Assembly (NCBI GenBank): GCA_046315175.1
Contig: JBKDBK010000002.1
Location: 4,388-68,387 of the forward strand
From: Opitutia bacterium
GTDB lineage: Bacteria > Verrucomicrobiota > Verrucomicrobiia > Opitutales > UBA953
Length of the DNA stretch: 64,000 bases
Direction: 5' to 3'
The translations under genes and the position numbers were made by a program. Positions 8,098 to 61,641 of the stretch are shown piece after piece (within the stretch, counting starts at the first letter, position 1; every line of letters begins with the position of its first letter). Below the pieces are notes generated by a model. That model saw only the letters and a list, made by a program, of their open reading frames with translations. It was not told the DNA's origin and did not search any database.

Positions 8098-9570
8098 CTA
8101 GGCCAGCAGGCCCTTGACCAGCTTGCCATGGACGTCGGTCAGGCGGAACTGGCGTCCCTGGTAGCGATACGTCAGCGCCTCGTGGTTGATGCCGCAGAGG
8201 TGGAGGAGCGTCGCCTGCATGTCGTGCACGTGCACCGGATCCTTGGTGATGTTCCAGCCGAAGTCGTCCGTCGCCCCGTGCACATGGCCCTTGCGGACGC
8301 CCCCCCCGGCCAGCCACCAGCTGTAGGCGCGCCCGAAGTGGTCGCGCCCGTTGGGCTTCGCGGTCGGGCCCTGGCCGAAGGGCGTGCGCCCGAACTCCCC
8401 GCCCCAGACGACCAGGGTGTCGTCCAGCATCCCGCGCTGCCTGAGGTCCTTGACCAGCGCGGCGCTCGGCTGGTCGGTGTCCTTGCACTGCACCTCGAGC
8501 TGGGAGAAGAGGTTGTTGTGCTGGTCCCAGCCCGCGTGCATCAGCTGGGTGAACCGCACCCCGCGCTCGGCGAGCCGCCGCGCGATCAGGCAGTTGTTGG
8601 CGAAGGTGCCCGGCACGAGCACATCCGGCCCGTACATCTCCAGGACGGACTTGGGCTCGTTGCGGAAGTCGAGCAGGTCCGGCACCGACGCCTGCATGCG
8701 AAACGCCATCTCGTACTGCGAGATGCGGGTCTCGATGGCCGGGTCGCCGACCGCCCCGAAGTGCGCCCGGTTGAGCGCCTGCATGTCCTCGAGCAGCCGG
8801 CCGCGGGCCTCGCGGCTGACGCCGGCGGGATTGCGCACGTAGGGCACCGGGTCGCCCGAGCCGCTGAAGCGCACGCCCTGGTGTTTCCCGGGCAGGAAGC
8901 CGTTGCCCCAGTAGTGCTCGAAGAACAGCTGGCCGCAGGACTTCGCGCGGTCCGACGAGGTCATGACCACGAACGCGGGCAGGTCGGCGTTCATCGTGCC
9001 CAGGCCATAGGCCAGCCAGGCCCCCATGGAGGGCCGGCCGGGAATCTGCGACCCCGTCATGAAGAAGGTCACACCGGGCGCGTGGTTGACCGCCTCGGTG
9101 TGGAGCGAGCGCACCACGCAGATCTCGTCGGCGATCTCGCCGATGTGGGGGATGAGGTCGCTCAGGCCCATGCCGCTCCGCCCGCGGTTGCGGAAGGGCT
9201 TGAGCGCGGGGACGGCCGGGAAGCTCTTGTAGCCGCTGGACATCGTCGAGAGGCGCGTCTCGCCGCGCACGCTCGCCGGGATGTCCTTCCCCGCGTGCGC
9301 CAGCAGCGCGGGCTTCTCGTCGAAGAGGTCGACATGCGAGGGGCCCCCTCCCTGCCACAGGCAGATGACCCGCTTGGCCTTCGGCGCGAGGTGGGGCAGG
9401 CCGGGCAGGGCGCCCAGCGGGTCGACGGCGGCCTTGCCGCCCGCGAGCAGGTCCTTCGCCAGCAGCGAGGAAAGGGCGACCGTGCCGATGCCCTGGACGG
9501 AGGCGCTGAGGAAGCTGCGGCGCGTCAGGGCGGCGCGCCACTCGGAGGGCGAGAGGAGGGAGGGGTCCAT
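8098..9570 (-). CDS. DUF1501 domain-containing protein (sulfatase-like fold, Tat signal)
   Basis: Twin-arginine N-terminus LTRRSFLSASVQGIGTVAL. 490 aa. Paired with a DUF1553 gene, as is typical in PVC bacteria. Confidence 0.9.
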   Translation of the reverse strand: MDPSLLSPSEWRAALTRRSFLSASVQGIGTVALSSLLAKDLLAGGKAAVDPLGALPGLPHLAPKAKRVICLWQGGGPSHVDLFDEKPALLAHAGKDIPASVRGETRLSTMSSGYKSFPAVPALKPFRNRGRSGMGLSDLIPHIGEIADEICVVRSLHTEAVNHAPGVTFFMTGSQIPGRPSMGAWLAYGLGTMNADLPAFVVMTSSDRAKSCGQLFFEHYWGNGFLPGKHQGVRFSGSGDPVPYVRNPAGVSREARGRLLEDMQALNRAHFGAVGDPAIETRISQYEMAFRMQASVPDLLDFRNEPKSVLEMYGPDVLVPGTFANNCLIARRLAERGVRFTQLMHAGWDQHNNLFSQLEVQCKDTDQPSAALVKDLRQRGMLDDTLVVWGGEFGRTPFGQGPTAKPNGRDHFGRAYSWWLAGGGVRKGHVHGATDDFGWNITKDPVHVHDMQATLLHLCGINHEALTYRYQGRQFRLTDVHGKLVKGLLA

Positions 9571-9571
9571 G

Positions 9572-11878
9572 TCAGTCGCGGGTCTGGGCGGCGTCGAGGT
9601 TGAGGATGCCGAGGCAGGTGGCGGTCAGGGCGGCGTGCTCCGCGGCGGGAAGGGAGGCGTCGCGGGGCACCGTGCCGATGGCGAGCAGCTCGCCCGCCGC
9701 CTTGGCGTCGGCCGCGTACACCGCGCGCTGCCCGGCCAGCATGCGCGCGAGCAGCCCGGCCTCGGCCGCGTCGGGCGCGCGGCCCAGGGCGAGCCGGAAG
9801 GCATGGCTGAGCCGGGTGGCGTCGTCGCCCCCCGCCTTCCAGGCGCGCTCCGCGAGCATCCGCGAGGCCTCGACCCAGGTCGGGTCGTTCATCATGGTGA
9901 GGGCGTGGAGGGGCGAGGCGGTGGGGGTCAGGCGCACGCGGCAGGCCTGGCGCGTCGAGGTGTCGAACAGGTTGACCGGCGCGATGGTGCGTCGCCAGAA
10001 GGTGTAGAGGCTCCGGCGGTGGAGGTCGCGGCCCTTGGACGCCGGGTAGGTGAAGTCGCGTTCCTTCGTGATCGCGAGGCTGGCCCAGGGATTGGGCGGC
10101 ATGTAGGGGTAGACCGGCGCGCCTCCCAGCTCGCGATTGAGCAAGCCGGATGAGGCCAGCGCGAGGTCGCGCAGCACGGGCGAGGGCAGCCGGTAGCGCG
10201 GCGCCCGGGCGAGCAGCCGGTTTTCCGGGTCCTTGGCCAGGTGCTCCGGTGTCACCTTGCTCGACTGCCGGTAGGTGCGGCTGGTCACCATCAGGCGCTG
10301 CAGGGCCTTGGTCTTCCAGCCCGACTCGCGGAACTCCACCGCCAGCCAGTCGAGCAGCTCGGGATGGGTCGGCAGCTCGGCCTGCACGCCGAGGTCCTCG
10401 GACGTCCGCACGATGCCTTGGCCGAAGAAATGCTGCCACTGCCGGTTCACCTGCACGCGCGCGACCAGGGGATTGGCGGGGTCGAACATCCAGCGCGCCA
10501 GGCCGAGCCGATTCGAGGCCGCGCCGGCGGGCAGCGGGGGCAGGAAGGCGGGGGTGCCGAAGGGGACCTTCTCCCTGGGCATGCTGTAGTCGCCTCGGTC
10601 GAGCCGGTGCGTGTCGCGGCGCTTCGCGTCGCTCATGACCATGACCTTGGCGACGGACTTGCGGAGCGCGTCCAGGCGGCCCTTGGCGTCCTTGTCGCCC
10701 GCCTTTGCCAGCGGCTCCAGCCGGGCGATCTCCGCCTCCTCGGCCGCCGTGGGCACGTCGAGCACCGGCGTGTCCAGTCGGAATCGACCGTTGTTCAGGT
10801 GGGGCACGCCCTTCTCCGGCACCTGGTTGAACGCGGCGAGGAAGCCGTAGTAGTCCCGCATCGTGATCGGGTCGTACTTGTGGTCGTGGCACTGGGCGCA
10901 GGACACGGTGAGCCCGAGCCAGGTCGTCGCCGTGGTGTCGACCCGGTCGAAGAGGCTGACGAACCGCTGCTCCTCCTCGATGTTGCCGCCCTCGCCGTTG
11001 AGGATGTGGTTGCGGTTGAAGGCCGTGGCGAGGATCTGCTCGCGCGTCGCCCCGGGAAGCAGGTCGCCCGCCAGCATCTCCGTGCTCAGCTGGTCAAAGG
11101 GCTTGTCCGCGTTGAGCTGCCGCACCAGCCAGTCGCGCCAGACCCACTGGTGCGTGTCACCGTCCTGCTGGAAGCCGTTGCTGTCCGCGTACCGCGCGGC
11201 GTCCAGCCAGGGCAGGGCCATGCGCTCGCCGTAGTGCGGCGAGGCCAGCAGGCGGTCGACCTGGCGCTCGTAGGCCCCCGGGGCCTTGTCCGCCACGAAC
11301 GCGGCGGTCTCCTCCGGGGTCGGCGGGAGGCCGGTCAGGTCGAGCGACAGCCGTCGGAGCAGGGTCTCGCGCGAGGCCTCCGGCGACCAGCCTAGCCCGG
11401 CCTTGCGCAGCCGGGCGCCCACGAACGCGTCGATCGGGTTCGCCTCCCCGACCTCGGGGGGCTTGGGGCGGACCGGGGCGACGTACGCCCAGTGGTCGCG
11501 GTAGACCGCGCCCTCGGCGATCCAGCGCCTCAGGGTCGCGCGCTGCTCGGGTGTGACCGTCCGATGGGAGTCCGGCGGCGGCATGATGTCGTCGGGATCC
11601 GTGGTCTCGAGGCGCCGGATGATCTCGCTCGCGTCCGGGTCGCCCGGCACGATGGCCTTGGCCGCGACGGCGGCGTCCCGCACATCCAGCCGGAGGTCGG
11701 CCTCGCGCTTCGCCCCGTCGGGGCCGTGGCAGTAGAGGCAGTTCTCCGAGATGATGGGCCGGACCTCCGTGTTGAAGTCCACGGGTAGCTTCGCCTCGCC
11801 GCACGAGGACAGGCCGGCGGCGGCCACCCCGGCAAGGATGGCCGCAACGCTGGACTTGGCCAAGGCGGGGCGGGGCAC
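9572..11878 (-). CDS. PSCyt (planctomycete cytochrome c) / DUF1549 / DUF1553 domain protein
   Basis: N-terminal heme-binding motif CLYCHG followed by DLRLD. 768 aa with the DUF1549 and DUF1553 architecture. Stop lies 1 nt before the DUF1501 start. Confidence 0.9.
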   Translation of the reverse strand: MPRPALAKSSVAAILAGVAAAGLSSCGEAKLPVDFNTEVRPIISENCLYCHGPDGAKREADLRLDVRDAAVAAKAIVPGDPDASEIIRRLETTDPDDIMPPPDSHRTVTPEQRATLRRWIAEGAVYRDHWAYVAPVRPKPPEVGEANPIDAFVGARLRKAGLGWSPEASRETLLRRLSLDLTGLPPTPEETAAFVADKAPGAYERQVDRLLASPHYGERMALPWLDAARYADSNGFQQDGDTHQWVWRDWLVRQLNADKPFDQLSTEMLAGDLLPGATREQILATAFNRNHILNGEGGNIEEEQRFVSLFDRVDTTATTWLGLTVSCAQCHDHKYDPITMRDYYGFLAAFNQVPEKGVPHLNNGRFRLDTPVLDVPTAAEEAEIARLEPLAKAGDKDAKGRLDALRKSVAKVMVMSDAKRRDTHRLDRGDYSMPREKVPFGTPAFLPPLPAGAASNRLGLARWMFDPANPLVARVQVNRQWQHFFGQGIVRTSEDLGVQAELPTHPELLDWLAVEFRESGWKTKALQRLMVTSRTYRQSSKVTPEHLAKDPENRLLARAPRYRLPSPVLRDLALASSGLLNRELGGAPVYPYMPPNPWASLAITKERDFTYPASKGRDLHRRSLYTFWRRTIAPVNLFDTSTRQACRVRLTPTASPLHALTMMNDPTWVEASRMLAERAWKAGGDDATRLSHAFRLALGRAPDAAEAGLLARMLAGQRAVYAADAKAAGELLAIGTVPRDASLPAAEHAALTATCLGILNLDAAQTRD

Positions 11879-19303: not shown

Positions 19304-19861
19304 ATGAACCCGTTTCAGGCCCCCCTGACCCCTCCGGACGACCTCCGGGCGCGCCTGGACCGCAACCTGGCCAAGGGGCCGGATCTCCATCCCTCAGCCT
19401 TTGTCCACCCCCGCGCCGTGGTGGAGGGGGCGGTGACCGTCGGGGCGAAGTCCAGCATCTGGCCCTGCGCGGTCCTGCGGGGGGACATTGAGCCGATCTC
19501 GGTCGGGCAGGGCACCAACATCCAGGACGGGGCCGTCGTCCATGTGGCCGACGGGCTGCCCGCCCGCATCGGCGACCGCGTGACGGTCGGGCACCTGGCG
19601 ATGATCCACGCCTGCGAGGTCGGCGACGAGTGCCTCATCGGCATGCACGCCACCTTGCTCGACGGGTGCAAGGTGGGCGCCCGCTCGATTGTCGGCGCCG
19701 GCGCGCTGGTCACCAAGGGCACCGTCATTCCCCCGGGCTCGCTCGTCCTCGGCTCGCCCGCCAAGGTCGTCCGCGCCCTCTCCGCCGAGGAGCAGGCGGC
19801 GCTTCCCGGCTGGGCGGAGAAGTACATCGTCGTGGCCGAGCACCACGTGCGGTGGCGCTGA
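19304..19861 (+). CDS. gamma-carbonic anhydrase family protein (left-handed beta-helix)
   Basis: Hexapeptide repeats and the motif SIWPCAVLRGDIEPISVGQGTNIQDGAVVH. Confidence 0.9.
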   Translation: MNPFQAPLTPPDDLRARLDRNLAKGPDLHPSAFVHPRAVVEGAVTVGAKSSIWPCAVLRGDIEPISVGQGTNIQDGAVVHVADGLPARIGDRVTVGHLAMIHACEVGDECLIGMHATLLDGCKVGARSIVGAGALVTKGTVIPPGSLVLGSPAKVVRALSAEEQAALPGWAEKYIVVAEHHVRWR

Positions 19862-20733
19862 TGGCCTCGTCGGCCGAGCTCGCGATTCCAAGGGCCTGCT
19901 GGGAGCGGCGCCGCGCCGCCCACCATGCGCGCGTCGACCGTCTCACCGCCGCCCGTCGCGCGCGCGCCGCGGCGGGCCTCGCCCATCCCGTCGAGGACTT
20001 CCTCTTCACCTACTATCCCTTCCGGATCGGCGCGCTGCGGCGCTGGTCGCCGGGCTGGGGCGCCGCGCTCGAGGGCGAGTCCGCGCCCGAGGGCGAGGGT
20101 TGGTGGTCCCGCGAGGGCGCCGTCCTGCGCGTCGCCGAGGCGGAGCGCGACGCGACCGCGCTCCGCCTCGCCCGCTTCATCCGCGACCTTTGCGCCGCCG
20201 TCGCCGCCCGCCCCGCCTTCCACGGCTGCTTCGGCCTGCACGAGTGGGCGATGGTCTACCGCTCGGCCGAGGCCCGCCGCCATGCCGCCTGGCCCCTGCG
20301 CCTCGGCGCCGAGGGGACCGACGCCGTGGTGGAGTCGATGCCCGTGCGCTGCGGCCACTTCGACGCCTTCCGGTTCTTCACCCCGGAGGCCCGGCCCCTC
20401 AACCGACTCCAGCCCGACCTCGCCGGTCGGCTCGCCAACGAGCAGCCCGGCTGCATCCACGTGAACATGGACCTCTACAAGTGGGCCATGAAGCTGAGGC
20501 AGCTGGTCCCCTCCGAGCTGGCCGCCGACGCCTTCGACCTCGCCCTGCGGGCGCGCGAGACCGACATGCGCGCGAGCCCCTACGACCTGCGCGCCCTCGG
20601 CCTCGAGCCCATCCGCGTCGAGACGCCCGAGGGCCGCGCCGACTACGAGGCGACCCAGCGCGCCCTGGCCGAGGCCGCCGCGCCGATTCGCGCGCGGCTC
20701 CTCGCGGCGTGCGACCTCATCCTGGGGGCCTGA
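19861..20733 (+). CDS. conserved hypothetical protein (family often auto-annotated as 3-methyladenine DNA glycosylase)
   Basis: ATG shares 1 nt with the upstream stop (TGATG). Motifs VEDFLFTYYPFR and GLHEWAMVYR recalled from that family. Function is not established. Confidence 0.55.
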   Translation: MASSAELAIPRACWERRRAAHHARVDRLTAARRARAAAGLAHPVEDFLFTYYPFRIGALRRWSPGWGAALEGESAPEGEGWWSREGAVLRVAEAERDATALRLARFIRDLCAAVAARPAFHGCFGLHEWAMVYRSAEARRHAAWPLRLGAEGTDAVVESMPVRCGHFDAFRFFTPEARPLNRLQPDLAGRLANEQPGCIHVNMDLYKWAMKLRQLVPSELAADAFDLALRARETDMRASPYDLRALGLEPIRVETPEGRADYEATQRALAEAAAPIRARLLAACDLILGA

Positions 20734-29564: not shown

Positions 29565-32500
29565 TTATTGTAGACGCTTGGCCCTTGGTTCCAATCCGAT
29601 TCGGAGGGCGGTGGCCAGCGCGGGCGCCGTCGGGGAGCCCTTTTTTCCGGCCAAGCCCTCGGGCGGGCCTTGGTGCAGCAGGCGCCCGCCCCCGGCGCCG
29701 CCCTCGGGGCCGATTTCCACGAGCCAGTCGGCCTCGGCGAGGATGTCGGGATGGTGCTCGATGACGACCACGGTGTGGCCTTGGTCGACCAGCTCGTGGA
29801 GCAGGGCGAGGAGCTTGCGGATGTCGGCCGGGTGCAGGCCGATGCTGGGCTCCTCGAGGAGGTAGAGGTTGGGTTGGATCCGGCCCCGCGCGCGCTCGGC
29901 GAAGGTGGGCAACCCGCGGATCAGCTCGCTGACCAGCTTCAGGCGCTGCGCCTCGCCGCCCGAGAGCGTCGGGCTGCTTTGACCGAGGGCGAGGTAGCCG
30001 AGCCCCGTCCGGGCCATCAGGCCGCACATCTCGCGCAGGCGGATGTCGCTCCCGAGGAAGTCGGCCGCCTCGGCGAAGGTCATCGCGAGGATGTCGGCCG
30101 CCGACTTGCCGTTCCAGCGGATGGAGCCCGCCACCGGCCCGAAGCGGCTGCCGCCGCAGGCCTCGCAGGGGACATAGGTCTCCGGCAGGAAGCTCATCTC
30201 GAGGCGGGCGCGGCCCGCGCCGGAGCACGCCTCGCAGCGCCCGCCCGGGGTGTTGAACGAGAAGAAGCCCGGCCCGAGGCCGCGCAGCGCCGCCTCGGGC
30301 AGCTTGGCCAGCCGCTCGCGCACGAGGTCCCACGCCCCGATGTAGGTGGCGGGCGTCGAGCGCGGCGTCTTGCCGATGGGGTCCTGGTCGACGACCACCA
30401 GCTGCCGCAGGCCGCGCAGGCCGCGCAGCTCGCGGAAGGCCCGGTCGCCGAGGCCGAGCGCGGCGCCGTCGGAGGCCTTGGCGCCATCCCTCCCGCGCTG
30501 GATGGCCTGCCGGGCAACCGGCGCGAGGAGGTCGGAGAGCAGGGTGGACTTGCCCGCGCCCGAGACGCCCGCCACCACGCAGAGGCGCCCGCGCGGCAGC
30601 CGCAGGTCGAAGCCGCGCAGGTTGCGCAGCGCGGCGCCGTCCAGCTCGATCCAGCCCTCCGGGGCCTCCTTGCCGCGCGGGTTCACCGGCCGCCGGGAGC
30701 CGCGCATCGGGTGCGCCATCGGCTCCCGCAGCGCCGCGCCGGTCAGCGAGCCCGCGGTTGCCATCACCTCGCGCACCGTGCCTTGGGCGAGGATGCGGCC
30801 GCCGTCGCGCCCGGCGCCCGGCCCCATGTCCACCACCCGGTCGGCCGCCCGCATGGTGTCCTCGTCGTGCTCCACGACCAGCACGGTGTTGCCGCGGTCG
30901 CGCAGCGCCTTGAGCGAGTCGATCAGCCGGTCGTTGTCCCTCGGGTGCAACCCGATGCTCGGCTCGTCGAGCACGTAGAGCGCGCCCGAGAGGGTGGACC
31001 CAAGCTGCGAGGCGAGCCGGATGCGCTGGGCCTCCCCGCCGGAGAGCGTGTCGGCCGGGCGGTCGAGCGCGAGATAGCCCAGGCCCACTCCCGAGAGGAA
31101 GTCGAGCCGGGCCGCGATTTCCGGCAGGAGGGCGTCGGCCACCGCCCGCTCGCGCGCGGCCAGCCTCAGCCCGCGCAGGAAGGCGAGCCCCTCCGACGGC
31201 GGCAGGGCGAGCAGCCCGGGGAGGGAGAGCGAGCGGGAGCCCTCGCCCAGGCGGATGTTCCTGCCCAGCGGGGCGAGGCGCGCCCCCGAGCAGGCCGGGC
31301 AGACGGCCTCGCCCACGCGGTCCGCCAGCGCGTCCTCGTTGAGCGTCTCCGCCTCGTCGGCCGCGAACCGCTCGATGACGCGGCCGTGCCCGCGGCAGGC
31401 GGGACACCAGCCGCGGGGGGAGTTCCAGGAGAGGTGCTTTGGGTCGATCTCGGGGTAGGCCTCGCCCGTCGCCGCGTCGACCCGCGCGGTGGAGAGGAGC
31501 GCGACCTCGCGGCCGCGGGCGTCGACCAGCGCGACGACGCCCTTCCCGATGCGCAGGGCCTCGCGCGCCGCGGCCCGGAGCGCCCGCTCGCCCTTCCCGG
31601 GCTCGGCGCCGGGCCGGGTGACGGCGCCGCGCGGGCCGAGGTCGGCCACCACGGCGTCGACGTCGTGCTCGCGGTAACGGTCCAGGCCCTTGAAGCCGGT
31701 CGCGTCGACCAGCTCGCCGTCGCACCTCAGCCGCGACATCCCGTGGTCCAGCGCCCACTCGGCCAGCGGCCGGTGGTGGCCCTTTCGCCCGCGCACAAGC
31801 GGGGCGGCCAGGTGAAGGATCCCCTTTGCGCCCGCGGCGAGCTCCGCCAGCCGCCGCACCACCGCGTCCTCGGTCAGGCTCACCAGGGGCTTGCCCGTGG
31901 AGGGGCTGTGCGGGGTTCCCGCCCGCGCGTAGAGCACCCGGAGGTACTGGGCCACCTCCGTGACCGTGGCCACGGTGGACTTCGAGGAGCCGCGGGTGAC
32001 GCGCTGCTCGATCGCGACCGCCGGCGGCAGGCCGCGGAGCGCGTCCAGGTCGGGCTTGGGCAGCTGCTCGACGAACTGGCGCGCATAGGCCGAGACGCAC
32101 TCGAGGTACCGCCGCTGGCCCTCGGCGAAGAGGATGTCGAAGGCCAGGGTCGACTTGCCCGAGCCGGAGACGCCCGTCAGCACGGTCAGCTGGCCGTGCG
32201 GCAGGTCGAGGGAGACATCCCGCAGGTTGTGCTCGCGTCCGCCTCGCAACTCGATCGCCCGGGTTCGGGCCTGCCTCGGCGCCGCCGCGGACGGGGCGAA
32301 GGCGTCGGATTCCGAGGCCAGCAGCCGGCCCGTCGGGGTCGTGCCCCGGGCCAAGTCGGCCGGAGTCCCCTCCGCCACGAGCCGCCCGCCCGCCGGTCCC
32401 GCCTCGGGGCCGAGCTCGGCGAGCCAGTCGCAGGCGGCCAGCACGTCGCGGTGGTGCTCGACCACGACCAGCGAGTGGCCGCGGCCGGCGAGCCGCTGGA

Positions 32501-35129
32501 GCAGGCCGAGCAGCCGGTCCACGTCCTCGCGGTGCAGCCCGGTCGTGGGCTCGTCGAGCAGCAGCAGGGCGCCGTCCGGTCGCTTGCCGCGCGCCTTGGC
32601 GCCCCGTCCCTTCCGGACGGGCTCGCGGTCGAGCTCGCCGAGGAAACGGACCAGCTTGAGGCGCTGCGCCTCGCCGCCCGAGAGCGTGGTCAGCGGCTGG
32701 CCCAGGCGCAGGTACCCCAGGCCGACCTCCTCGAGAACGGCGAGCTGCCCGGTCGCGGGCGTGCGCGCGCCGAGGAAGGCGCGAGCCTCCGCCACCGTCA
32801 TGCCGAGCAGGTCCGCGACGGATTGACCGTCCACCTTCAGCCGCAGGATCTCGTCCCGGAACCGCTTGCCCTCGCAGGCGGGGCAGGGGACGGCGACGTC
32901 CGACAGGAACTGCATCTCGACCGTCTCCCAGCCCGCGCCGCCGCAGCGCTCGCAGCGGCCCTCGCCCGCGTTGAAGGAGAAGTGCGAGGGCGTGAGACCC
33001 TCGGCCTTCGCCGCCTCGCTGTTGCCCAGCCAGTTGCGGATGGCGTCCCAAGCCCCGGTGTAGAGGGCCGGGTTCGAGCGCGGCGTCCGGGTTACCGGCG
33101 ATTGGTCGACCAGCGCGACCTCCGACACCGCCTGGCCGAGCCGAACCCAGCCCGGGTCCTCGCCTCGCGCCTCGCCCGTCTCCGGGTCGCGGCCGCCCAG
33201 CACCTGGTGCAGGAGCGTCGACTTGCCCGACCCGGATACGCCGCAGAGGCCGACCAAACGGCCCATGGGCAGCGACACGCGGAAGTCGCGCAGGTTGTTC
33301 GCGGACGCGCCGCGCACCTCGATGCGCGGCGTCGAGGCCGTCACCGGGCGGCCCGCCGACGCGGCCGGCCGGCGCCTGCCCGAGAGCCACTCGCCCGTGG
33401 CCGAGCCCTTGGCCCTCGTCACGCCCGCCGGCGGCCCCTCGTAGACGAGCCGGCCGCCCTCGGCGCCGGGGCGCGGCCCGATCTCGATCAGCCAGTCGGC
33501 CGACCGCATGACCGACTCGTCGTGCTCGACCACGACCACCGTGTTGCCTTGGTCGACCAGGCTGCGGAGAATCCCGACCATGCGGCCGATGTCCCGCGCG
33601 TGCATGCCCACGCTGGGCTCGTCGAGGATGAAGACCGTGTCGGCCAGCGCCGCGCCCAGGCACGAGGTCAGGTTGACCCGCTGGACCTCGCCGCCGGACA
33701 GCGTGCGGGAAAGCCGGTCGAGCGCGAGGTAGCCAAGGCCGACCGTCTCGAGGTAGCCCAGCCGCGCGAGGATGGCCTCGTGCGCGTGCTCCGCCGGGTG
33801 GCGGGCCTTGGCCGGCCGCCCCGGCTCCAGGCGGGCGCGGAGCTCGGTCACCGTCAGCCGATACAGCTCGGGGAGCGTCGAACCCTCCCATCGCCAGCAG
33901 AGCGACTCCGGCTGGAAGCGGGCGCCGGCGCAGCCAGGGCACGTCTCGTAGGCCCGGTAACGCGAGAGGAAGACGCGCACATGCATCTTGTAGGTGGTCG
34001 ACTCAAGCCAGCGGAAAAAGCCGCGGATGCCGTACCACTTGCTCGACCACTCGCCCGGCTGGTAATCCGGCTGCCCGTCGCGCACGAGGTCGCGCTGGGC
34101 CTCGGTCAGCGCCGACCAGGGCCGGTCGACCGGGATTCCCCTGGCGCGGCAGGCGCGCATGAGGTCGCGCTGGCTCTCGCCGTAGACCGAGCCTTGGAAG
34201 GGGGCGATCGCGCCCTCGGCCAGCGAGAGCGACGGGTCGGGGATGATCTTGGACCAGTCGAGGCCGATCACCCGCCCGAAGCCGCGGCAGGCGGGACACG
34301 CCCCGAGCGGGGAGTTGAAGGAGAAGAGTCCCGGCGTCGCCGGGCGGAAGCGTCGGCCGTCCACCGGCGACTCCAGGTGCTCGGAGACCCGCAGCCGCTC
34401 TCCGCCCTCGGACCCGAGCAGCCGGATGCGCCCCCCGCCGAGCCGGAAGGCCGCGCGCGCCGCCTCGTCGAAGCGCCCGCGCTCCCCGTCCGCCAGGCGC
34501 AGGCGATCCTGCGCCACGGTGATCTCGGCCAGGCTTTCCGGCAGCGCCTCCTCGCCCAGCCGCGCCCAGCGGTCGCCCGCCCAGGCACGCGTGAAGCCGG
34601 CGCGCGCGAATTCGCCCGCCACCGCCTTCCAATCCAGGCCCTCGGGCTTGGCCACCGCGAAGCCGACCACGCACTCGCCGTCGCCGAGGGCCGCCCGCCC
34701 CCGCTCCCAGGCCGCCTCGGCGCCCCCGGGGCGGATGACGCGGCCGTCCGCGGGGTCGACCAGCTCCGCGCGGTGGGCGAACCACACCTTGAACCAGTCG
34801 CAGAGCTCGGTCATCGTGCCGACGGTCGAGCGCGAGGTGCGCACGGCGTTGCCCTGGCGGATGGCGACCGACGGGCGGATGTTCTCCGCCGAGTCGAGCG
34901 CGGGCGCCGGAAGCAGCTCGAGGAACTGGCGCACATAGGGCGAGAAGGTCTCGACGTAGCGCCGCTGCCCCTCGGCGTGCAGCGTGTCGAAGACAAGCGA
35001 CGACTTGCCCGCCCCGCTCAGGCCGGTGACGACGACCAGCTTCCCGACGGGGATGTCGACGTCCAGGTCCTTCAGGTTGTTCTGGCGCACGCCGCGCAGG
35101 CGGATGCTCTCGGGGGTTCGGCGCGACAT
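29565..35129 (-). CDS. tandem-duplicated UvrA-like ABC ATPase (two UvrA units fused in one polypeptide)
   Basis: Four Walker A loops (GLSGAGKSS, GVSGSGKST twice, GVSGAGKST), four LSGGE signatures and four LDEP/LEEP Walker B motifs. UvrA-type CxxC zinc modules occur in both halves. Start chosen at MSRRTPESIRLRGVRQNNL. Confidence 0.9.
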   Translation of the reverse strand: MSRRTPESIRLRGVRQNNLKDLDVDIPVGKLVVVTGLSGAGKSSLVFDTLHAEGQRRYVETFSPYVRQFLELLPAPALDSAENIRPSVAIRQGNAVRTSRSTVGTMTELCDWFKVWFAHRAELVDPADGRVIRPGGAEAAWERGRAALGDGECVVGFAVAKPEGLDWKAVAGEFARAGFTRAWAGDRWARLGEEALPESLAEITVAQDRLRLADGERGRFDEAARAAFRLGGGRIRLLGSEGGERLRVSEHLESPVDGRRFRPATPGLFSFNSPLGACPACRGFGRVIGLDWSKIIPDPSLSLAEGAIAPFQGSVYGESQRDLMRACRARGIPVDRPWSALTEAQRDLVRDGQPDYQPGEWSSKWYGIRGFFRWLESTTYKMHVRVFLSRYRAYETCPGCAGARFQPESLCWRWEGSTLPELYRLTVTELRARLEPGRPAKARHPAEHAHEAILARLGYLETVGLGYLALDRLSRTLSGGEVQRVNLTSCLGAALADTVFILDEPSVGMHARDIGRMVGILRSLVDQGNTVVVVEHDESVMRSADWLIEIGPRPGAEGGRLVYEGPPAGVTRAKGSATGEWLSGRRRPAASAGRPVTASTPRIEVRGASANNLRDFRVSLPMGRLVGLCGVSGSGKSTLLHQVLGGRDPETGEARGEDPGWVRLGQAVSEVALVDQSPVTRTPRSNPALYTGAWDAIRNWLGNSEAAKAEGLTPSHFSFNAGEGRCERCGGAGWETVEMQFLSDVAVPCPACEGKRFRDEILRLKVDGQSVADLLGMTVAEARAFLGARTPATGQLAVLEEVGLGYLRLGQPLTTLSGGEAQRLKLVRFLGELDREPVRKGRGAKARGKRPDGALLLLDEPTTGLHREDVDRLLGLLQRLAGRGHSLVVVEHHRDVLAACDWLAELGPEAGPAGGRLVAEGTPADLARGTTPTGRLLASESDAFAPSAAAPRQARTRAIELRGGREHNLRDVSLDLPHGQLTVLTGVSGSGKSTLAFDILFAEGQRRYLECVSAYARQFVEQLPKPDLDALRGLPPAVAIEQRVTRGSSKSTVATVTEVAQYLRVLYARAGTPHSPSTGKPLVSLTEDAVVRRLAELAAGAKGILHLAAPLVRGRKGHHRPLAEWALDHGMSRLRCDGELVDATGFKGLDRYREHDVDAVVADLGPRGAVTRPGAEPGKGERALRAAAREALRIGKGVVALVDARGREVALLSTARVDAATGEAYPEIDPKHLSWNSPRGWCPACRGHGRVIERFAADEAETLNEDALADRVGEAVCPACSGARLAPLGRNIRLGEGSRSLSLPGLLALPPSEGLAFLRGLRLAARERAVADALLPEIAARLDFLSGVGLGYLALDRPADTLSGGEAQRIRLASQLGSTLSGALYVLDEPSIGLHPRDNDRLIDSLKALRDRGNTVLVVEHDEDTMRAADRVVDMGPGAGRDGGRILAQGTVREVMATAGSLTGAALREPMAHPMRGSRRPVNPRGKEAPEGWIELDGAALRNLRGFDLRLPRGRLCVVAGVSGAGKSTLLSDLLAPVARQAIQRGRDGAKASDGAALGLGDRAFRELRGLRGLRQLVVVDQDPIGKTPRSTPATYIGAWDLVRERLAKLPEAALRGLGPGFFSFNTPGGRCEACSGAGRARLEMSFLPETYVPCEACGGSRFGPVAGSIRWNGKSAADILAMTFAEAADFLGSDIRLREMCGLMARTGLGYLALGQSSPTLSGGEAQRLKLVSELIRGLPTFAERARGRIQPNLYLLEEPSIGLHPADIRKLLALLHELVDQGHTVVVIEHHPDILAEADWLVEIGPEGGAGGGRLLHQGPPEGLAGKKGSPTAPALATALRIGLEPRAKRLQ

Positions 35130-35177
35130 GGAAACCCGCCAACGGAGGGGAATCGGCCGGCTTGGCAAGCGACCCGC

Positions 35178-37588: not shown

Positions 37589-38014
37589 TCAGGCCCCGGC
37601 CGCGTGCCGGCCGAAGGCCCGGATGCGCCCCACGAGGTTGGACAGGCCGTTGCGGCGGTTGGGGGAAAGGTGCTGGGTCACGCCGACCTCGGAGAGGAAA
37701 TCGGCGTCGGTCGCCGCGACCTCCGCGGGGGTGGCCCCGTCGTAGAGCTCGCAGACCAGGGTGGCGACGCCCTTGGTGATGAGCGAGTCGGCGTCGCAGC
37801 GGAAGCGGCAGGCGCCCGCCTCGACCGTCGGATGGAGCCAGAGGTTCGAGGTGCACCCCTCGATCAGGAGGCTCGGCACCTTGAACTCAGCGGGCAGGCC
37901 CGGGGCTCCCTTGGCCCGGTCGATGATGTACTGGAACCGCTCGTGCGGGTCCTCGAAGGGCGCCAGCTCGGCGACCAGGGCGGCGCGCTTTTCCGCGAGC
38001 GTCATGAGGGGCAT
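37589..38014 (-). CDS. sufE: SufE family cysteine desulfuration protein
   Basis: FEDPHERFQYIID...IEGCTSNLWL...SNLVGRIR pattern. Confidence 0.9.
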   Translation of the reverse strand: MPLMTLAEKRAALVAELAPFEDPHERFQYIIDRAKGAPGLPAEFKVPSLLIEGCTSNLWLHPTVEAGACRFRCDADSLITKGVATLVCELYDGATPAEVAATDADFLSEVGVTQHLSPNRRNGLSNLVGRIRAFGRHAAGA

Positions 38015-39777
38015 CAGCGCCCTAGGAAGGCGTCCTTGTCAAGGTCGGGCCGGACAAGCGGGGTGATCGCCGCCTCGAGCTTTCGCCGCCGCTCGGGCGC
38101 GATGTCGCCCGCCTCGCTCCGCAGCCAGGCGAGCAGGTCGCCCCAGACCGTCGGGATGGGGCGGCGACCGGAAAGCAGGCTCTCCGCCTCGTCCGCCAGG
38201 GATCGTCGCGTCCCCCGGGCGTCGGCCTGCCCGGCGAGGATGCGCGCCGAGATCCAATCCGCCCTCAGCTGGGAATGCCAAGGATTGAGCCGGACTCCCT
38301 GGGCCAGCACGCGCGCGGCGGGCTCCGCCGCGCCTCCCTCCATCAGGTGCCGCGCGACCGAACGGTAGGCCTCCGGGCCGGGCAGCTCCGCCAGGAAGGC
38401 CTCCAGGTGCTTGTCGGCGACGCTGCGGTCGGCCGTTTCCGCCGCGGCGTTGGCCTTGGGCCTGAGGTGGTGGGCGATGCCGAGCAGGGCCTGCACCATC
38501 GCCTGGTTGGAGCGGAAGTGCGTCGGCTGGGCTCGGTTGATGTTCTGGTAGGTGCGGATGGCGAGGTCCGGCCGGCCCGCGCGGATGAGCGACTCCAGGT
38601 GCAGCGCGCTGAAGGTCGCCGTGTCGTACCCCTTGGCGATCGCGAGGTTGGCCAAGGTCTCGCAGATGGCGCTCGCCCCGCGCTGGGAGGCGAAGTTGGC
38701 CAAGGCGAGCATCACGGCGTCGTTGTCGCCGTGCCGCTGGAGGATCGACTGGAGCTCGCGGTCGAAGTCCTCCGCCTGGCCGAGCTTCGAGAGCACCGCG
38801 AGCCGCTGCACGCGCAGGAAGCCGTTGGAGGCGTCGAGCGAGATTCGGTCGTTCAGGATGGAGAGGGCTTGCCGCGGCTGCTTCGCCAGCAGGAGAAGCC
38901 GACCGTGTTGGCCGAGGATGGCATCCCGCTCCGGGCCCTTGAAATCTGCCACCCGGTTCTCCAGCAGGCTGAAGGCCTGTTGAATCCGGCCTCCATCGAA
39001 GAGGGCCAAGGCATGGAGCATCACCCCGTTGGCGGTCCGATCGATGCGGTACTGCTCAATCGTCGCCACAGCCTCCGGGTATCTTCCTGCCCAATAGAGA
39101 GAGGTGGCGAGCTGGCCAGCGGCTATAGCGCGGGTTTCGGAGTCTAAATCGTTGATTTTCAGTATTTTGTAAAAAACATCGATCACCGTTCCATCTTCAT
39201 GCCTGGCTTGCAGGAGTTGACCGTACCGTTCGAGGAGGGCACGGTCGGTTACATCAAAAGGGGCTGAAAACCTTATCCCATTCTTGAGCAACGAGATAGC
39301 CTCATCGGTCTGCCCTAAGCGGCGGTGCAAAAGGTCCGCATAAAAGAGCTTAACCCGTGGGTTGGTCGGGTTACATTTTAGGGCTAGTTGGGCGGCCTGA
39401 AGAGCGGTGGGGATATCACCCTCATCGAGGTGTTTCTTGCCCACCTCCATGAAGTATCCGGCAATGGATGCCAAGTGGCGCTGGCGAATGGCGGCCGCAT
39501 TTTCGGGCTCCGCTTGGATAGCCGCAAGGGTTAGCCGGACGCCTGAGCGAAGCACTGGATCTTCAATAAGCGCGGTTTTTTCGCCTATTTTAGCCACATA
39601 ATCGAGTGTAGCTGCCTTTCCCTGGGTTACGGGCATGCCCATCAAGAGAATGGGCTCGGGGTCGATTTCCGTCTTGGTTTGAGCCGAAGGCGCAGGGGCG
39701 GTAGGGGCTCCCGGGGGTGTCTGTCCAGGGGAGGGCAGGGCCAAGCCGAGGAGCAGGAGGCAGACGAGGCTTCGCAT
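38014..39777 (-). CDS. secreted tetratricopeptide (TPR) repeat protein
   Basis: Signal peptide MRSLVCLLLLGLALPSPGQ, then helical TPR-like repeats throughout. Stop shares 1 nt with the sufE start (TGATG). Confidence 0.8.
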   Translation of the reverse strand: MRSLVCLLLLGLALPSPGQTPPGAPTAPAPSAQTKTEIDPEPILLMGMPVTQGKAATLDYVAKIGEKTALIEDPVLRSGVRLTLAAIQAEPENAAAIRQRHLASIAGYFMEVGKKHLDEGDIPTALQAAQLALKCNPTNPRVKLFYADLLHRRLGQTDEAISLLKNGIRFSAPFDVTDRALLERYGQLLQARHEDGTVIDVFYKILKINDLDSETRAIAAGQLATSLYWAGRYPEAVATIEQYRIDRTANGVMLHALALFDGGRIQQAFSLLENRVADFKGPERDAILGQHGRLLLLAKQPRQALSILNDRISLDASNGFLRVQRLAVLSKLGQAEDFDRELQSILQRHGDNDAVMLALANFASQRGASAICETLANLAIAKGYDTATFSALHLESLIRAGRPDLAIRTYQNINRAQPTHFRSNQAMVQALLGIAHHLRPKANAAAETADRSVADKHLEAFLAELPGPEAYRSVARHLMEGGAAEPAARVLAQGVRLNPWHSQLRADWISARILAGQADARGTRRSLADEAESLLSGRRPIPTVWGDLLAWLRSEAGDIAPERRRKLEAAITPLVRPDLDKDAFLGR

Positions 39778-39948
39778 CGGAGGTGTCACCTTGCGGTTTC
39801 GTCCGAGGATGTCGCTAGAAAAAGCGACGCCGGTGAGGGTGCGCTCCGAGGCCGTCGGTCGAAATGTTAAAATCCCGCTATTTTCCTCTTGCACGAGGGG
39901 TTGGGAGTCCTATGCCCCAACGCTCTTTTCTCCGCAAAACACGGCACC

Positions 39949-43486: not shown

Positions 43487-44119
43487 ATGAAACTCCACCT
43501 CATCGGCAAGAAAATCGGCATGACCCAGGTCTACGACGGCGAGAACAACCTCGTCCCCGTGACCGTGGTGCAGGCCGGCCCCTGTCCCGTCACCCAGGTC
43601 AAGACCGCGGCCAAGGACGGCTACCACGCCGTCCAGATCGGCTTCGGCGTCCAGAAGGAGCACCGCCTCTCCCAGCCCGAGCTCGGCCACCTCCGCAAGG
43701 CCGGCGCCGGCGCCCTCTCCCACCTCTCCGAGATCCGCCTCGACGGCGAGTCCGCCCACAAGGTCGGCGACGTCCTCACCGTCGAGACCTTCGCCCCCGG
43801 CCAGATGGTCGACGTCATCGGCACCGTCAAGGGCCGCGGCTTCCAGGGCGTGATGAAGCGCCACAACATGGCCGGCCAGCCCGACACCCACGGCCACATG
43901 ATGCACCGCCGAGTCGGGTCCATCGGCATGCGCCAGACCCCCGGCCACGTCTTCAAGGGCAAGCGCATGCCCGGCCACATGGGCAACGTCCGCCGCACCT
44001 CCCAGAACCTGCGCGTCGTCCAGGTCCTCGCGGAGAAGAACCTCATCCTCATCAAGGGCAGCCTCCCCGGCGCCAACGGCGAGATCGTCCTCGTCCGCCA
44101 GGCCAAGAAGGCGAAGTGA
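43487..44119 (+). CDS. rplC: 50S ribosomal protein L3
   Basis: LIGKKIGMTQVYD...GKGFQGVMKRHNMAG... Confidence 0.97.
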   Translation: MKLHLIGKKIGMTQVYDGENNLVPVTVVQAGPCPVTQVKTAAKDGYHAVQIGFGVQKEHRLSQPELGHLRKAGAGALSHLSEIRLDGESAHKVGDVLTVETFAPGQMVDVIGTVKGRGFQGVMKRHNMAGQPDTHGHMMHRRVGSIGMRQTPGHVFKGKRMPGHMGNVRRTSQNLRVVQVLAEKNLILIKGSLPGANGEIVLVRQAKKAK

Positions 44120-44145
44120 ACCCGAACCCGCACGAACGCACGCAC

Positions 44146-44772
44146 ATGAAGCTCAAGTTCCACAAGGCCGATGGCTCCCCTGCCGGGGAGCGCGACTTCG
44201 CCATTCCCGCCTTCGAGGGCGACAGCGCCGTCGCCCTGCTCAAGCAGGCCGTCATCGGCTACCAGGCCAACCGCCGCCAGGGCAACGCCAAGGCCAAGAA
44301 CTACGGCGAGGTCGCCGGTTCGGGCAAGAAGATGCTCCCCCAGAAGGGCTCCGGCGGCTCCCGCCACGGGGACAAGCGCGCCCCCCAGCTGTACAAGGGC
44401 GGCGTCGTCTTCGGCCCCCGTCCCCGCGACTGGTCCAAGGCCATCCCCGCCACCCAGCGCCGCAAGGCCCTCGGCCGCGCCCTCTTCGACCTCGCGACCG
44501 CCGGCGGCCTGTCCGTCATCGAGCGCTTCGAGGTCGCCAAGCCCAAGACCAAGGCCTTCGTCAGCGTCCTCGACAAGGTGAGCCCCGGCGAGCGCCGCGT
44601 CCTCCTCGTCGACGCCGCCTGGGCCGAGCCCGTCCGCCGCGCCAGCCGCAACGTCGCCCGCGCCGCCTTCGCCAACTCGACCAACCTCAACGCCCTCGAC
44701 CTGGTGCGCCACGGCAACGTGGTCATCTCCGAGAAGGCGCTCGAGCTGGTCCTCGCCCGCGCCGCCAACTGA
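44146..44772 (+). CDS. rplD: 50S ribosomal protein L4
   Basis: ...QKGSGGSRHGDKRAPQLYKGGVVFGPRPRDW. ATG 44146 preferred over the GTG at 44116. Confidence 0.93.
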   Translation: MKLKFHKADGSPAGERDFAIPAFEGDSAVALLKQAVIGYQANRRQGNAKAKNYGEVAGSGKKMLPQKGSGGSRHGDKRAPQLYKGGVVFGPRPRDWSKAIPATQRRKALGRALFDLATAGGLSVIERFEVAKPKTKAFVSVLDKVSPGERRVLLVDAAWAEPVRRASRNVARAAFANSTNLNALDLVRHGNVVISEKALELVLARAAN

Positions 44773-44779
44773 TTCCGCC

Positions 44780-45067
44780 ATGAAACCCGCTTCCCAGGTC
44801 ATCGCCCGCCCCGTGCTCACGGAGAAGGCCACCGGCCTCGCCACCGAGGGCCGCTATGTCTTCGACCTCGTCCCCGGCGCCGACCGCCGCCAGGTCAAGG
44901 CCGCCGTCGAGGCCGCCTTCAAGGTCACCGTGACCAAGGTCAACATCCTCGTCCGCAAGGGCAAGGTCCGCCGCTCCCGCCTCTCCGGCGGCAGCGTCTA
45001 CCGCGAGACCGACACCCGCCGCGCCATCGTCACCCTGAAGAAGGGCGACACCATCTCCTTCGCCTGA
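44780..45067 (+). CDS. rplW: 50S ribosomal protein L23
   Basis: VIARPVLTEKAT...FKVTVTKVNIL. Position between rplD and rplB. Confidence 0.95.
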   Translation: MKPASQVIARPVLTEKATGLATEGRYVFDLVPGADRRQVKAAVEAAFKVTVTKVNILVRKGKVRRSRLSGGSVYRETDTRRAIVTLKKGDTISFA

Positions 45068-60101: not shown

Positions 60102-61631
60102 TTGACACCCGCCCCCGCCCTCGCCACCCTCCGGCCAGTGCCCGAACCCGCCTTCCAGGTCATCGCCCGCCGCTGGCGCCCCCGCGCCTTCGGCGAGATC
60201 GTCGGCCAGCAGCACATCGTCCGCACCCTCGGCAACGCCATCCGCGGCGGCCGCATCGCCCACGCCTACCTCTTCGTCGGCCCCCGCGGCACCGGCAAGA
60301 CCACCACCGCCCGCATCCTCGCCAAGGCCCTCTGCTGCGAGGGCGGCCCCAAGGCCGACTTCGACCCCGACGACCCCGTCTGCCGCGAGATCGAGCAGGG
60401 CTCGTACCTCGACGTCGTCGAGATCGACGCCGCCTCCAACCGCGGCATCGACGACGCCAAGTCCATCCGCGAGGCCTGCCAGGTCCGCCCCGCCGGACGG
60501 TTCAAGGTCTTCATCATCGACGAGGTCCACCAGCTCAGCAAGGACGCCTTCAACGCCCTCCTCAAGACCATCGAGGAGCCCCCGCCCTGGGTGAAGTTCA
60601 TCTTCGCCACCACCGAGTCCGACAAGGTCCTCGAGACCATCGTCTCCCGCTGCCAGCGCCTCGAGTTCCAGCCCATCCCCGACGCGCTCATCGCCGACCG
60701 CCTCGAGGCCATCGTCAAGGCCGACGGCATCCAGGCCGACCGCGAGGCCCTCCTCGCCATCGCCCGCCTCGCCCAGGGCGGCATGCGCGACTCCCAGTCC
60801 ATCCTCGACCAGATCATCGCCTTCGCCGGCAAGAAGGTCGCCGAGAAGGACGTGCTCGACATCTACGGCCTCGCCTCCGCCCGCGAGCTCCAGGACCTCG
60901 CCGCCGCCCTCGCCAAGGCCGACGCGTCCGCCCTCCTCGCCCTCGCCGACCGCTTCCACGCCGACGGTCGCGACCTCCTCCGCATCCACGCCGACCTCCA
61001 GTCACACGTCCGAGCCGCCATGCTCGACGCCGCCCGCTCCGGCGGCCGCAGCGCCCGGCTCGGCGCCGAGCTCGGTTCCGACACCCTCGTGCGCATGCTC
61101 GACACGCTCCAGCAGGCCGAGCCCTCCCTCCGCCATGGACTCTCCCCGCGCGCCGTCTTCGAGGTCACCCTCCTCAAGGCCGCCGAGCAGACCCGACACC
61201 GATCGGTCGACGCGCTCATCCGCGACCTCAGCGCCGCCGCCAACGGACTCCCCCGGGAGCCCGGCCAAAAAAAAATAGGCACTCCGCCTCCCGCGGTCGC
61301 CCCCGCCGCGCCAGCCCCCGTCGCATCGGCGGCCCCGGTCGCTTCGGTTGCCCCGGTCCCGCCCGCGCGGCCCGTCGACGACGGCCCGCCCGACGACGTC
61401 CTCGACGTTCCGGAGGCCGCCGCCGATCTCGCTGAGTCTTGGCCCGAGCCCTCGACCGCCGCCGCCCAGGTCCTTCCCGAGGCCGCGCCCGCCCGGCCCG
61501 GCGCCCCGGAGTTCGACCAAGCCCTCGGCGCCATCCCCCCCGGCGTCCGCGCCAAGCTCAAGGAAACCCTCGGCGCGGAGTTCTCCCAGCTGCGCCCCCT
61601 CAAGCCCGGCGCGCTCCGCCGCCCGCGCTGA
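60102..61631 (+). CDS. dnaX: DNA polymerase III subunits gamma/tau
   Basis: AAA+ clamp-loader core (GQQHIVRTLGNAI..GRIAHAYLFVGPRGTGKTT, FIIDEVHQLS, SRCQRLEF) with a Pro/Ala-rich linker after the A9 tract. Start uncertain (TTG 60102 or GTG 60138). Confidence 0.93.
   Translation: MTPAPALATLRPVPEPAFQVIARRWRPRAFGEIVGQQHIVRTLGNAIRGGRIAHAYLFVGPRGTGKTTTARILAKALCCEGGPKADFDPDDPVCREIEQGSYLDVVEIDAASNRGIDDAKSIREACQVRPAGRFKVFIIDEVHQLSKDAFNALLKTIEEPPPWVKFIFATTESDKVLETIVSRCQRLEFQPIPDALIADRLEAIVKADGIQADREALLAIARLAQGGMRDSQSILDQIIAFAGKKVAEKDVLDIYGLASARELQDLAAALAKADASALLALADRFHADGRDLLRIHADLQSHVRAAMLDAARSGGRSARLGAELGSDTLVRMLDTLQQAEPSLRHGLSPRAVFEVTLLKAAEQTRHRSVDALIRDLSAAANGLPREPGQKKIGTPPPAVAPAAPAPVASAAPVASVAPVPPARPVDDGPPDDVLDVPEAAADLAESWPEPSTAAAQVLPEAAPARPGAPEFDQALGAIPPGVRAKLKETLGAEFSQLRPLKPGALRRPR
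61267..61278 (+). other. A9 homopolymer immediately followed by TAG inside dnaX (candidate recoding / slippage site)
   Basis: ggc caa aaa aaa ata ggc in frame. TAG at 61276-78 is in the +1 frame. The -1 frame runs to TGA 61433-35. Confidence 0.6.
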
Positions 61632-61641
61632 GGCCGAGGCC

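Follow-up and report, generated by a model that had tools for sequence, protein, structure and literature searches.

A single gene, uvrAA, encodes two UvrA units in series in a 64,000-nucleotide stretch of contig JBKDBK010000002.1 from an Opitutia bacterium (Verrucomicrobiota; Opitutales), referred to below in its entirety as the window. The gene lies at 29565-35129 on the reverse strand, where a scan for open reading frames (ORFs) finds one unbroken frame of 1,854 codons. Canonical UvrA is a homodimer, UvrA2, which senses helix distortion and loads UvrB, and whose insertion domains clamp the DNA. Sequence comparisons suggest that the uvrAA product is probably a single-chain version of this dimer, an intramolecular and subfunctionalised pseudo-dimer acting as the damage sensor of nucleotide excision repair. 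Its two halves are not equivalent: they differ in the insertion domain, in one ATP site and in the motifs found at the position of the UvrB-binding domain (UBD).

Two UvrA units in one polypeptide

A regular-expression scan of the 1,854-aa translation places Walker A motifs at residues 36, 630, 986 and 1521, LSGGE signatures at 477, 816, 1362 and 1722, Walker B motifs at 499, 855, 1384 and 1755 (the last reading LLEEPS) and H-loops at 531, 887, 1416 and 1787. Eight CxxC motifs form the pairs 278/397, 726/749, 1242/1277 and 1632/1655, so that the pairs of zinc modules 2 and 3 (Zn2 and Zn3) are present in both halves. The original prediction, made from the DNA letters alone, had described a continuous ORF for a tandem UvrA-UvrA chain with four each of the Walker A, LSGGE and Walker B motifs and UvrA-type zinc modules in each half, and all of this is borne out. 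Its claim of two complete units stands only in part, as both halves are UvrA but the second is without the insertion domain of about 115 aa. The junction, predicted near 32,260, is indeed found there. UvrA homology of half 1 stops near residue 940 and half 2 begins at RAIELRG; the 16-aa linker between them, SDAFAPSAAAPRQART, is the least conserved block of the family (0.33).

It is extremely improbable that this arrangement is an assembly or sequencing artefact in which a missed stop or a frameshift joined two adjacent uvrA-like genes. Three related contigs (L019, L021 and L024) do show the region as two ORFs, but the single frame recurs in more than 110 independent protein clusters and in dozens of genomes of different projects. 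In addition, a protein of the same 1,854 aa and 99 % identity (P0001) is present in a JGI data set, and the high GC of third codon positions continues evenly through the junction.

The full protein passes the cut-offs of two UvrA models, with 1,647 bits on NF001503 (cut-off 1,147) and 1,612 bits on TIGR00630 (cut-off 729.8), and UvrA chains in the PDB match it at E = 1e-222. On TIGR00630 each half also passes alone, with 765.6 bits for half 1 and 852.7 bits for half 2. When the halves are aligned separately, as had been proposed as a check, both are UvrA-like: half 1 aligns with Geobacillus UvrA (2r6f) in one stretch (residues 23-941, E = 4e-207) and half 2 with C. thermocellum UvrA (9gxk) over residues 24-306 and 423-956 (E = 2e-214). 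The cores of the two halves share 45 % identity. Compared with E. coli UvrA, half 1 is 38 % identical and half 2 41-45 % (45 % over 589 aa). Half 1 is a divergent but full-length UvrA unit and half 2 a unit with a more canonical ATPase core. AlphaFold2 (AF2) models, built for each half separately, have a mean predicted local distance difference test score (pLDDT) of 84.8 for half 1 and 85.2 for half 2; Foldseek places the half-1 model closest to the class I chain 3uwx_A (TM 0.84), against TM 0.67 for the class II protein 2vf7.

One insertion domain and one altered ATP site

In half 1 the cysteine pairs of Zn2, which frame the insertion domain, lie 119 aa from each other, in half 2 only 35 aa. 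The insertion domain of half 2 (about 115 aa) is therefore deleted, and half 1 carries the only one in the protein. Residues 307-422 of the reference 9gxk, which correspond to this domain, have no counterpart in half 2, and the Pfam domain UvrA_DNA-bind is detected in half 1 only (residues 291-355). The 119-aa spacing in half 1 is kept across 117 homologues. A Pfam pattern in which UvrA_inter is strongest in half 2 and UvrA_DNA-bind is confined to half 1 is also common to Akkermansia, Verrucomicrobiaceae, Gilvimarinus and Thiomonas. The asymmetry of the chain, which had been anticipated, is thus borne out by the different domain content of its halves.

All four ATPase modules keep the Walker A Lys, the Q-loop Gln, the signature, the catalytic Glu and the H-loop His. 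The fourth Walker B, LYLLEEPSIGLH, reads LLEEP, with Glu in place of Asp, in 117/117 Opitutales-type homologues. The same Glu is found in Akkermansia and Verrucomicrobiaceae. Proteobacterial relatives keep the Asp, as do 23 of the 28 other representatives of G1 type.

The UvrB-binding position

The original prediction had noted that a cysteine pair of zinc module 1 (Zn1) is missing from both halves. Alignment confirms this for both pairs of the Cys/His ligands, four in all, which flank the UBD in class I UvrA. The ligand sites are replaced in half 1 by ELVDPADG (first) and LESPVDG (second), and in half 2 by PHSPSTG and VDAATGE, so that the ligand positions hold D, D / S, D and S, T / D, T, respectively. 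As both Zn1 sites are occupied by residues that do not bind metal, the chain should, as predicted from sequence, bind four zinc ions instead of six. A Zn1-type C..[CH] motif is present in 0/117 half-1 and 2/112 half-2 homologue sequences, and its complete loss from both halves is specific to the Opitutales clade. Zn1 is found in both halves in Verrucomicrobiaceae and Proteobacteria, in half 2 only in Akkermansia and in neither half in Opitutales, a distribution that makes the loss look stepwise across lineages.

Despite the loss of Zn1, the fold at this position is confidently predicted to be retained in both halves. The AF2 models give pLDDT values of about 85-95 (91-95 in half 1) and a shared b-a-b-a-b-b-b-a-b-b topology. 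Pfam UvrA_inter matches half 2 only (residues 1087-1200, 61.8 bits). The half-1 domain, residues 121-265, has no such match; its conserved residues are, in the numbering of the window protein, D125, P126, W141, F157, W167, D208, R209, R219 and E222. This domain keeps VxDR and R219, the equivalent of E. coli R216, and has neither RKG nor KxxH. Conversely, the half-2 domain keeps APLVRGRKGHH and LDRYxEH and has lost VxDR and the helix that carries R216 and E222. Counts over 16 canonical single UvrAs and the homologues of each half (Table 1) indicate that the motifs of the canonical UBD are split between the halves.

Table 1. Occurrence of UBD motifs in canonical UvrAs and in the two halves of window-type proteins
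Motif	Canonical single UvrA	Half 1	Half 2
RKG (APxxxxRKGxH)	13/16	0/117	112/112
KxxH	13/16	1/117	111/112
VxDR	16/16	112/117	1/112
R..D/E..E helix	15/16	6/117	0/112

R216 and E222, which lie in the R..D/E..E helix, are the residues that were mutated in E. coli to disrupt the surface interacting with UvrB and Mfd (PMC3025350). Half 1 of the window protein carries R219 at the first of these positions and R225 at the second, and half 2 has neither residue. Coupling to UvrB may be altered, as the original prediction had suggested. In Akkermansia, Verrucomicrobiaceae and Gilvimarinus half 1 has equivalents of both and half 2 of neither. A first model, with half 2 as the binding partner of UvrB and half 1 as the DNA clamp, was weakened by the finding that R216 and E222 never occur in half 2.

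A probable single-chain pseudo-dimer

Cryo-electron microscopy of M. tuberculosis UvrA2 on damaged DNA has revealed an asymmetric dimer, in which one insertion domain serves recognition and the other support (PMC11985968). Within one protomer, docking of UvrB and clamping of DNA by its insertion domain were found to be mutually exclusive, and both A2B1 and A2B2 complexes were seen (PMC11985968). In the uvrAA product, the two protomers of the homodimer would be joined by the 16-aa linker and the halves would pack as they do in UvrA2. The fused protein would then scan DNA and pass lesions to UvrB, with one UvrB docked per chain in an A2B1-like complex. The fusion would fix the asymmetry of UvrA2 in the gene and allow either half to shed elements of which the pseudo-dimer needs a single copy, which would match the lone insertion domain and the complementary decay of the UBD-like domains. 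That the chain reproduces the dimer is argued from the repeated, apparently independent occurrence of fusions whose linkers are always short.

Alternatively, the chain might not fold back on itself. Two chains would then pair half-to-half, in a domain-swapped manner, to give a dimer of double UvrAs or a higher assembly with four UvrA units. In favour of such pairing, the linker is short (16 aa) and all ATPase and Zn3 elements are kept in both halves. However, a fusion would be without obvious benefit if intermolecular pairing were still required, the halves have lost accessory elements in a complementary way, as suits fixed 1:1 partners, and independent lineages have converged on the same tandem design. 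We therefore regard the domain-swapped assembly as quite unlikely.

A number of observations weigh against a pseudo-dimer that works as a repair sensor. The mapped UvrB contact pair R216/E222 is complete in neither half. The E. coli signature-II arginines R712, R722, R724 and R730 are required for DNA binding (PMC3025350), and two of the four are left in each half of the window protein (R, K, E and H at these positions in half 1; R, A, R and F in half 2); in related fused proteins, half 2 usually retains all four and half 1 does not. On NF001503 the halves alone stay under the cut-off of 1,147, with 783.7 bits for half 1 and 868.9 bits for half 2. Finally, Thiomonas and Gilvimarinus almost certainly own an ordinary uvrA as well, which makes the fused protein an extra paralogue in these bacteria. 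The intramolecular pseudo-dimer is nevertheless the reading that we favour.

A stricter form of it, possible but rather doubtful, takes the window protein for a hard-wired asymmetric UvrA that is an obligate loader of one UvrB (A2B1 type). The half with the sole insertion domain would clamp and recognise DNA and the other half would serve as docking and ATPase partner. UvrB docking would then be free of the steric conflict with DNA clamping that exists within one canonical protomer, and the zinc-free hinge and the Glu-for-Asp substitution at the fourth ATP site would tune a one-sided cycle.

Distribution and origin of fused UvrAs

The fusion is not an unusual event: fused UvrAs are widespread in Verrucomicrobiota and found in other phyla, are publicly named UvrA, and an NCBIfam model for a double UvrA exists. 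A homologue search of 5.8 billion proteins listed 120 clusters with 54-99 % identity, nearly all of 1,830-1,975 aa apart from a few truncated sequences and one of 2,403 aa; those with names read 'excinuclease ABC subunit UvrA [Opitutales bacterium]'. More than 110 of these homologous clusters share the layout of the window protein. The eight CxxC motifs are found in the full-length homologues among the 120 listed, down to 55 % identity, and motif counts confirm them in 117. When 1.84 billion cluster representatives were searched exhaustively with a 1,200-aa query spanning the junction, almost all of the top 150 matches were 1,500-2,343 aa long. Double UvrAs of 1,500-2,340 aa amount to more than 120 clusters at 50 % identity.

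One member of the family, P0098 (2,403 aa), has five Walker A and ten CxxC motifs, with an extra module resembling the second nucleotide-binding domain (NBD-II) between its halves, about two and a half UvrA units in all. It may be genuine, with three modules, or result from faulty assembly.

A genome scan with one genome per species, which was not exhaustive, returned double-length genes from Opitutales (69-71 % identity), Akkermansia including A. muciniphila (45 %), Verrucomicrobiales, Methylacidiphilales, a metagenome-assembled genome (MAG) of Fibrobacterales, many Planctomycetota (35-38 %) and the isolates Thiomonas bhubaneswarensis and Gilvimarinus sp. The survey of long UvrA homologues that had been suggested thus finds them in Verrucomicrobiota, Planctomycetota, Fibrobacterales and some Proteobacteria. 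No class I uvrA of single length from Verrucomicrobiota turned up in this same non-exhaustive scan; the double UvrA looks to be the normal form in this phylum.

We define a Verrucomicrobiota-type tandem UvrA, an uncurated group of the present analysis, by a half 1 that has the insertion domain but no RKG, a half 2 that has RKG but no insertion domain, and orthology of each half across the group; the window protein has all of these features. Other architectures comprise proteins of the window type with the half-2 insertion domain intact, proteins of planctomycete type, in which each half has every module and a C-terminal extension follows, proteins in reversed order, which begin with the half that has no insertion domain, and proteins of about 1,600 aa from which the UBD is missing in both halves. 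The last are represented by P0236, P0270, P0246 and about 25 other representatives, tandem UvrAs of about 1,590-1,650 aa built of class II-like units.

In a neighbour-joining tree of 786 core columns, rooted at the midpoint and without support values, the half-1 and half-2 sequences of the window type each form one clade that spans Verrucomicrobiota and two Proteobacteria. On this tree, each half is orthologous across Verrucomicrobiota. The planctomycete halves are placed elsewhere, as sisters to each other near the ordinary UvrAs. Double UvrAs of planctomycete type and others outside the window type go back to separate events, and the tandem fusion seems to have arisen several times in bacteria. 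Single-length UvrAs of Pyrinomonadaceae, which BLAST had suggested as free relatives of half 1, were dropped as the tree groups them with ordinary UvrAs.

Some loci depart from the fused form. Single-length UvrA genes without insertion domain occur in Verrucomicrobia bacterium UBA673 (L027, 10001-12640) and at a second locus (L025, 9889-12672). Both nest within the verrucomicrobial half-2 clade and have no half-1-like sequence within 10 kb upstream; gene fission or loss of half 1 may account for them. In four MAG contigs (L019, L021, L024 and L006), two or more ORFs cover the region of the double UvrA, which could be due to frameshifts or to genuinely split half genes. A 9.2-kb contig labelled as a Polynucleobacter meluiroseus MAG (L002, CALPIW020000041.1) carries an Opitutales-type fused uvrA of 71 % identity, with MTHFS and ACPS at the same positions as in the window array, and is probably a binning contaminant.

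Comparison with known UvrA systems

With class I UvrA (E. coli; Geobacillus 2R6F/3UWX; M. tuberculosis 3ZQJ/9GA3/9GA4) each half of the window protein has a core in common, made up of two ABC modules, the zinc modules Zn2 and Zn3 (the latter a hairpin module) and a domain in the place of the UBD; an insertion domain as in class I is present in half 1 only. The window protein differs in being one chain and not a homodimer and in having a single insertion domain where the homodimer has two, no Zn1 ligands, split UBD motifs and one Walker B Asp changed to Glu.

The NCBIfam model NF001885 (PRK00635, 'excinuclease ABC subunit A', 1,809 positions) also describes a tandem UvrA-UvrA in one polypeptide, and since it is curated the tandem design is already catalogued. 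We take this model to represent the UvrA of Chlamydiae, of about 1,790 aa. The window protein was rejected as a member on its score, 963.5 bits against a cut-off of 3,054, and five other window-type representatives fail as well (about 1,000 bits). It belongs to a different lineage of fused UvrAs.

The double UvrAs of planctomycetes (2,200-2,360 aa; for example Roseimaritima sediminicola, L035, and Fimbriiglobus, L032) are likewise tandem proteins, from a related phylum of the Planctomycetes-Verrucomicrobia-Chlamydiae (PVC) group. Unlike the window protein, they keep Zn1, UBD and insertion domain in both halves and have a C-terminal extension of 350-500 aa. Since their halves are sisters in the tree, they derive from a separate duplication. 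The extension has no Pfam match in L026, L029, L032, L035, L037, L038, P0143 and P0159.

Class II UvrAs are single-length homodimers of about 800-840 aa that are without the whole UBD and Zn1 (PMC9328131, PMC3167621). The absence of Zn1 is common to the window protein and to class II members such as D. radiodurans UvrA2 (2VF7), Ecm16 (7SH1) and DrrC, and independence from UvrB, as in class II, is possible. In contrast to class II, the window protein retains a predicted domain of 145-155 aa at the UvrB-binding position in both halves. An assignment to class II was rejected on this ground and on the preference of Foldseek for class I.

The likeness to class II bears on a further explanation, namely that uvrAA encodes an accessory paralogue which acts independently of UvrB, for example in the removal of DNA-bound toxins or the recognition of special lesions, while a canonical uvrA would lie elsewhere in the genome. 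The incomplete UvrB contact pair in both halves would suit such a role, as would the loss of Zn1, shared with class II (PMC9328131). Orthologous fused genes also occur in Proteobacteria, which normally own a standard uvrA. No fused gene has uvrB or uvrC nearby: among 80 loci, uvrB is found only beside single uvrA genes, mostly of Firmicutes, where it adjoins uvrA in many cases, and no uvrC was found beside fused genes. However, class II proteins wholly lack the domain of UBD topology seen in both halves, and all sampled lineages of Verrucomicrobiota, among them Akkermansia with its small genome, have the fused gene. Furthermore, it sits in a conserved housekeeping array and not beside biosynthetic or resistance genes, and the scan described above, within its non-exhaustive scope, yielded no single-length class I uvrA from the phylum. 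An accessory role is on balance unlikely, and a damage sensor in single-chain form remains our preferred reading.

By analogy only, the differentiation of the halves recalls mismatch repair, where the asymmetric MutS homodimer is matched in eukaryotes by MSH2-MSH6, two subunits differentiated after duplication. These proteins belong to a different family, and in the fused UvrA the subunits are covalently joined.

The gene and its surroundings

The ORF extends in full over 29565..35168 on the reverse strand, and a start at its upstream TTG (35168) would lengthen the protein by 13 residues. The ATG at 35129 is favoured as start, since the N-termini of the homologues begin there. GC at the third codon position of the uvrAA frame is 0.954, as in the other real genes of the window. 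Two long ORFs overlap uvrAA, one antisense and one on the same strand in a different frame; because their GC is highest at codon position 1 and not at position 3, both are shadow frames of this 75 % GC sequence. The features of the gene are listed in Table 2.

Table 2. Features of uvrAA and its product (window coordinates; NBD, nucleotide-binding domain)
Feature	Coordinates	Strand	Basis
Complete coding sequence, tandem UvrA-UvrA, 1,854 aa + stop	29565..35129	-	ORF, translation, GC at third codon position, NCBIfam, PDB matches
Half 1, residues 1-940: NBD-I, UBD-like domain, Zn2 + insertion domain, NBD-II, Zn3	32310..35129	-	
Walker A 1 (GLSGAGKSS)	34998..35024	-	
Half-1 domain at UvrB-binding-domain position, residues 121-265	34335..34769	-	
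Half-1 Zn2 (C278, C281, C397, C400) framing the insertion domain	33921..34298	-	
Walker A 2 (GVSGSGKST)	33216..33242	-	
Half-1 Zn3 (C726, C729, C749, C752)	32874..32954	-	
Inter-half linker, residues 941-956, 16 aa	32262..32309	-	Gap between homology to E. coli UvrA C-terminus and N-terminus
Half 2, residues 957-1854: ATPase core, UBD, Zn2 stub, NBD-II, Zn3	29568..32261	-	
Walker A 3 (GVSGSGKST)	32148..32174	-	
Half-2 UvrB-binding-type domain, residues about 1075-1228	31446..31907	-	
Half-2 Zn2 stub (C1242/C1245, C1277/C1280)	31290..31406	-	
Walker A 4 (GVSGAGKST)	30543..30569	-	
Half-2 Zn3 (C1632, C1635, C1655, C1658)	30156..30236	-	
Fourth Walker B, Asp -> Glu	29832..29867	-	

The local gene order is SufE - CtaA - MTHFS - uvrAA - transglutaminase-like - ACPS - DUF218 - NtrC-type regulator. 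The placement of uvrAA in a housekeeping array, with MTHFS upstream and the transglutaminase-like gene downstream, agrees with the original prediction, and the array is syntenic in five related Opitutales loci. Also as predicted, no uvrB or uvrC is nearby; none is found anywhere within the 64 kb. The window as a whole has about 72 % GC and holds genes of PVC type, such as those for PSCyt1/PSCyt2/PSD1 and DUF1501 proteins, MetH, EF-G and a ribosomal-protein operon. At 8098-11878 on the reverse strand, a DUF1501 gene is followed by an adjoining PSCyt1/PSCyt2/PSD1 (planctomycete cytochrome-like) gene, a pairing typical of PVC genomes that fits the taxonomic assignment.

Neither Rfam nor tRNA features are found in the window. 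Just upstream of rpsL/rpsG/fusA, GC drops to 0.64 in a region (38000-39900) where a simple gene-caller picked no ORF and no Rfam or tRNA match was obtained. Three large ORFs with coding-like GC at the third codon position, at 61002-63950 (-), 43621-44844 (-) and 19630-20733 (+), have no Pfam match at E <= 1e-5. In the one at the end of the window (982 aa), GC at the first codon position is unusually high (0.87).

Significance

The fusion itself is already known in the sense that it is widespread, routinely annotated as UvrA and, in one lineage, covered by a curated model. A full-text literature search found no paper that discusses a natural fused, duplicated or class III UvrA, or the UvrA of Chlamydia, the PVC group or Akkermansia. 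Nor did it find a description of the conserved asymmetry of the halves, of the split of UBD motifs in window-type UvrAs, of the loss of Zn1 with retained fold in Opitutales or of the Glu-for-Asp fourth site.

There is still debate over the number of UvrB molecules that UvrA loads (A2B2 or A2B1) and over the way in which the damaged strand is selected (PMC7835731, PMC11985968). In a homodimeric UvrA, the roles of the two protomers are genetically inseparable, and a natural single-chain UvrA allows each half to be mutated separately. The differences between the halves, namely the one insertion domain, the split UBD motifs and the one altered ATP site, offer a direct handle. A hinge that is predicted to be folded and is free of zinc bears on whether Zn1 is needed at all. 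For annotation, the double UvrA is apparently the normal form in Verrucomicrobiota and has apparently arisen several times in bacteria. If the stricter reading is true, an obligate A2B1-type sensor would provide a single-chain system with separately mutable 'protomers'.

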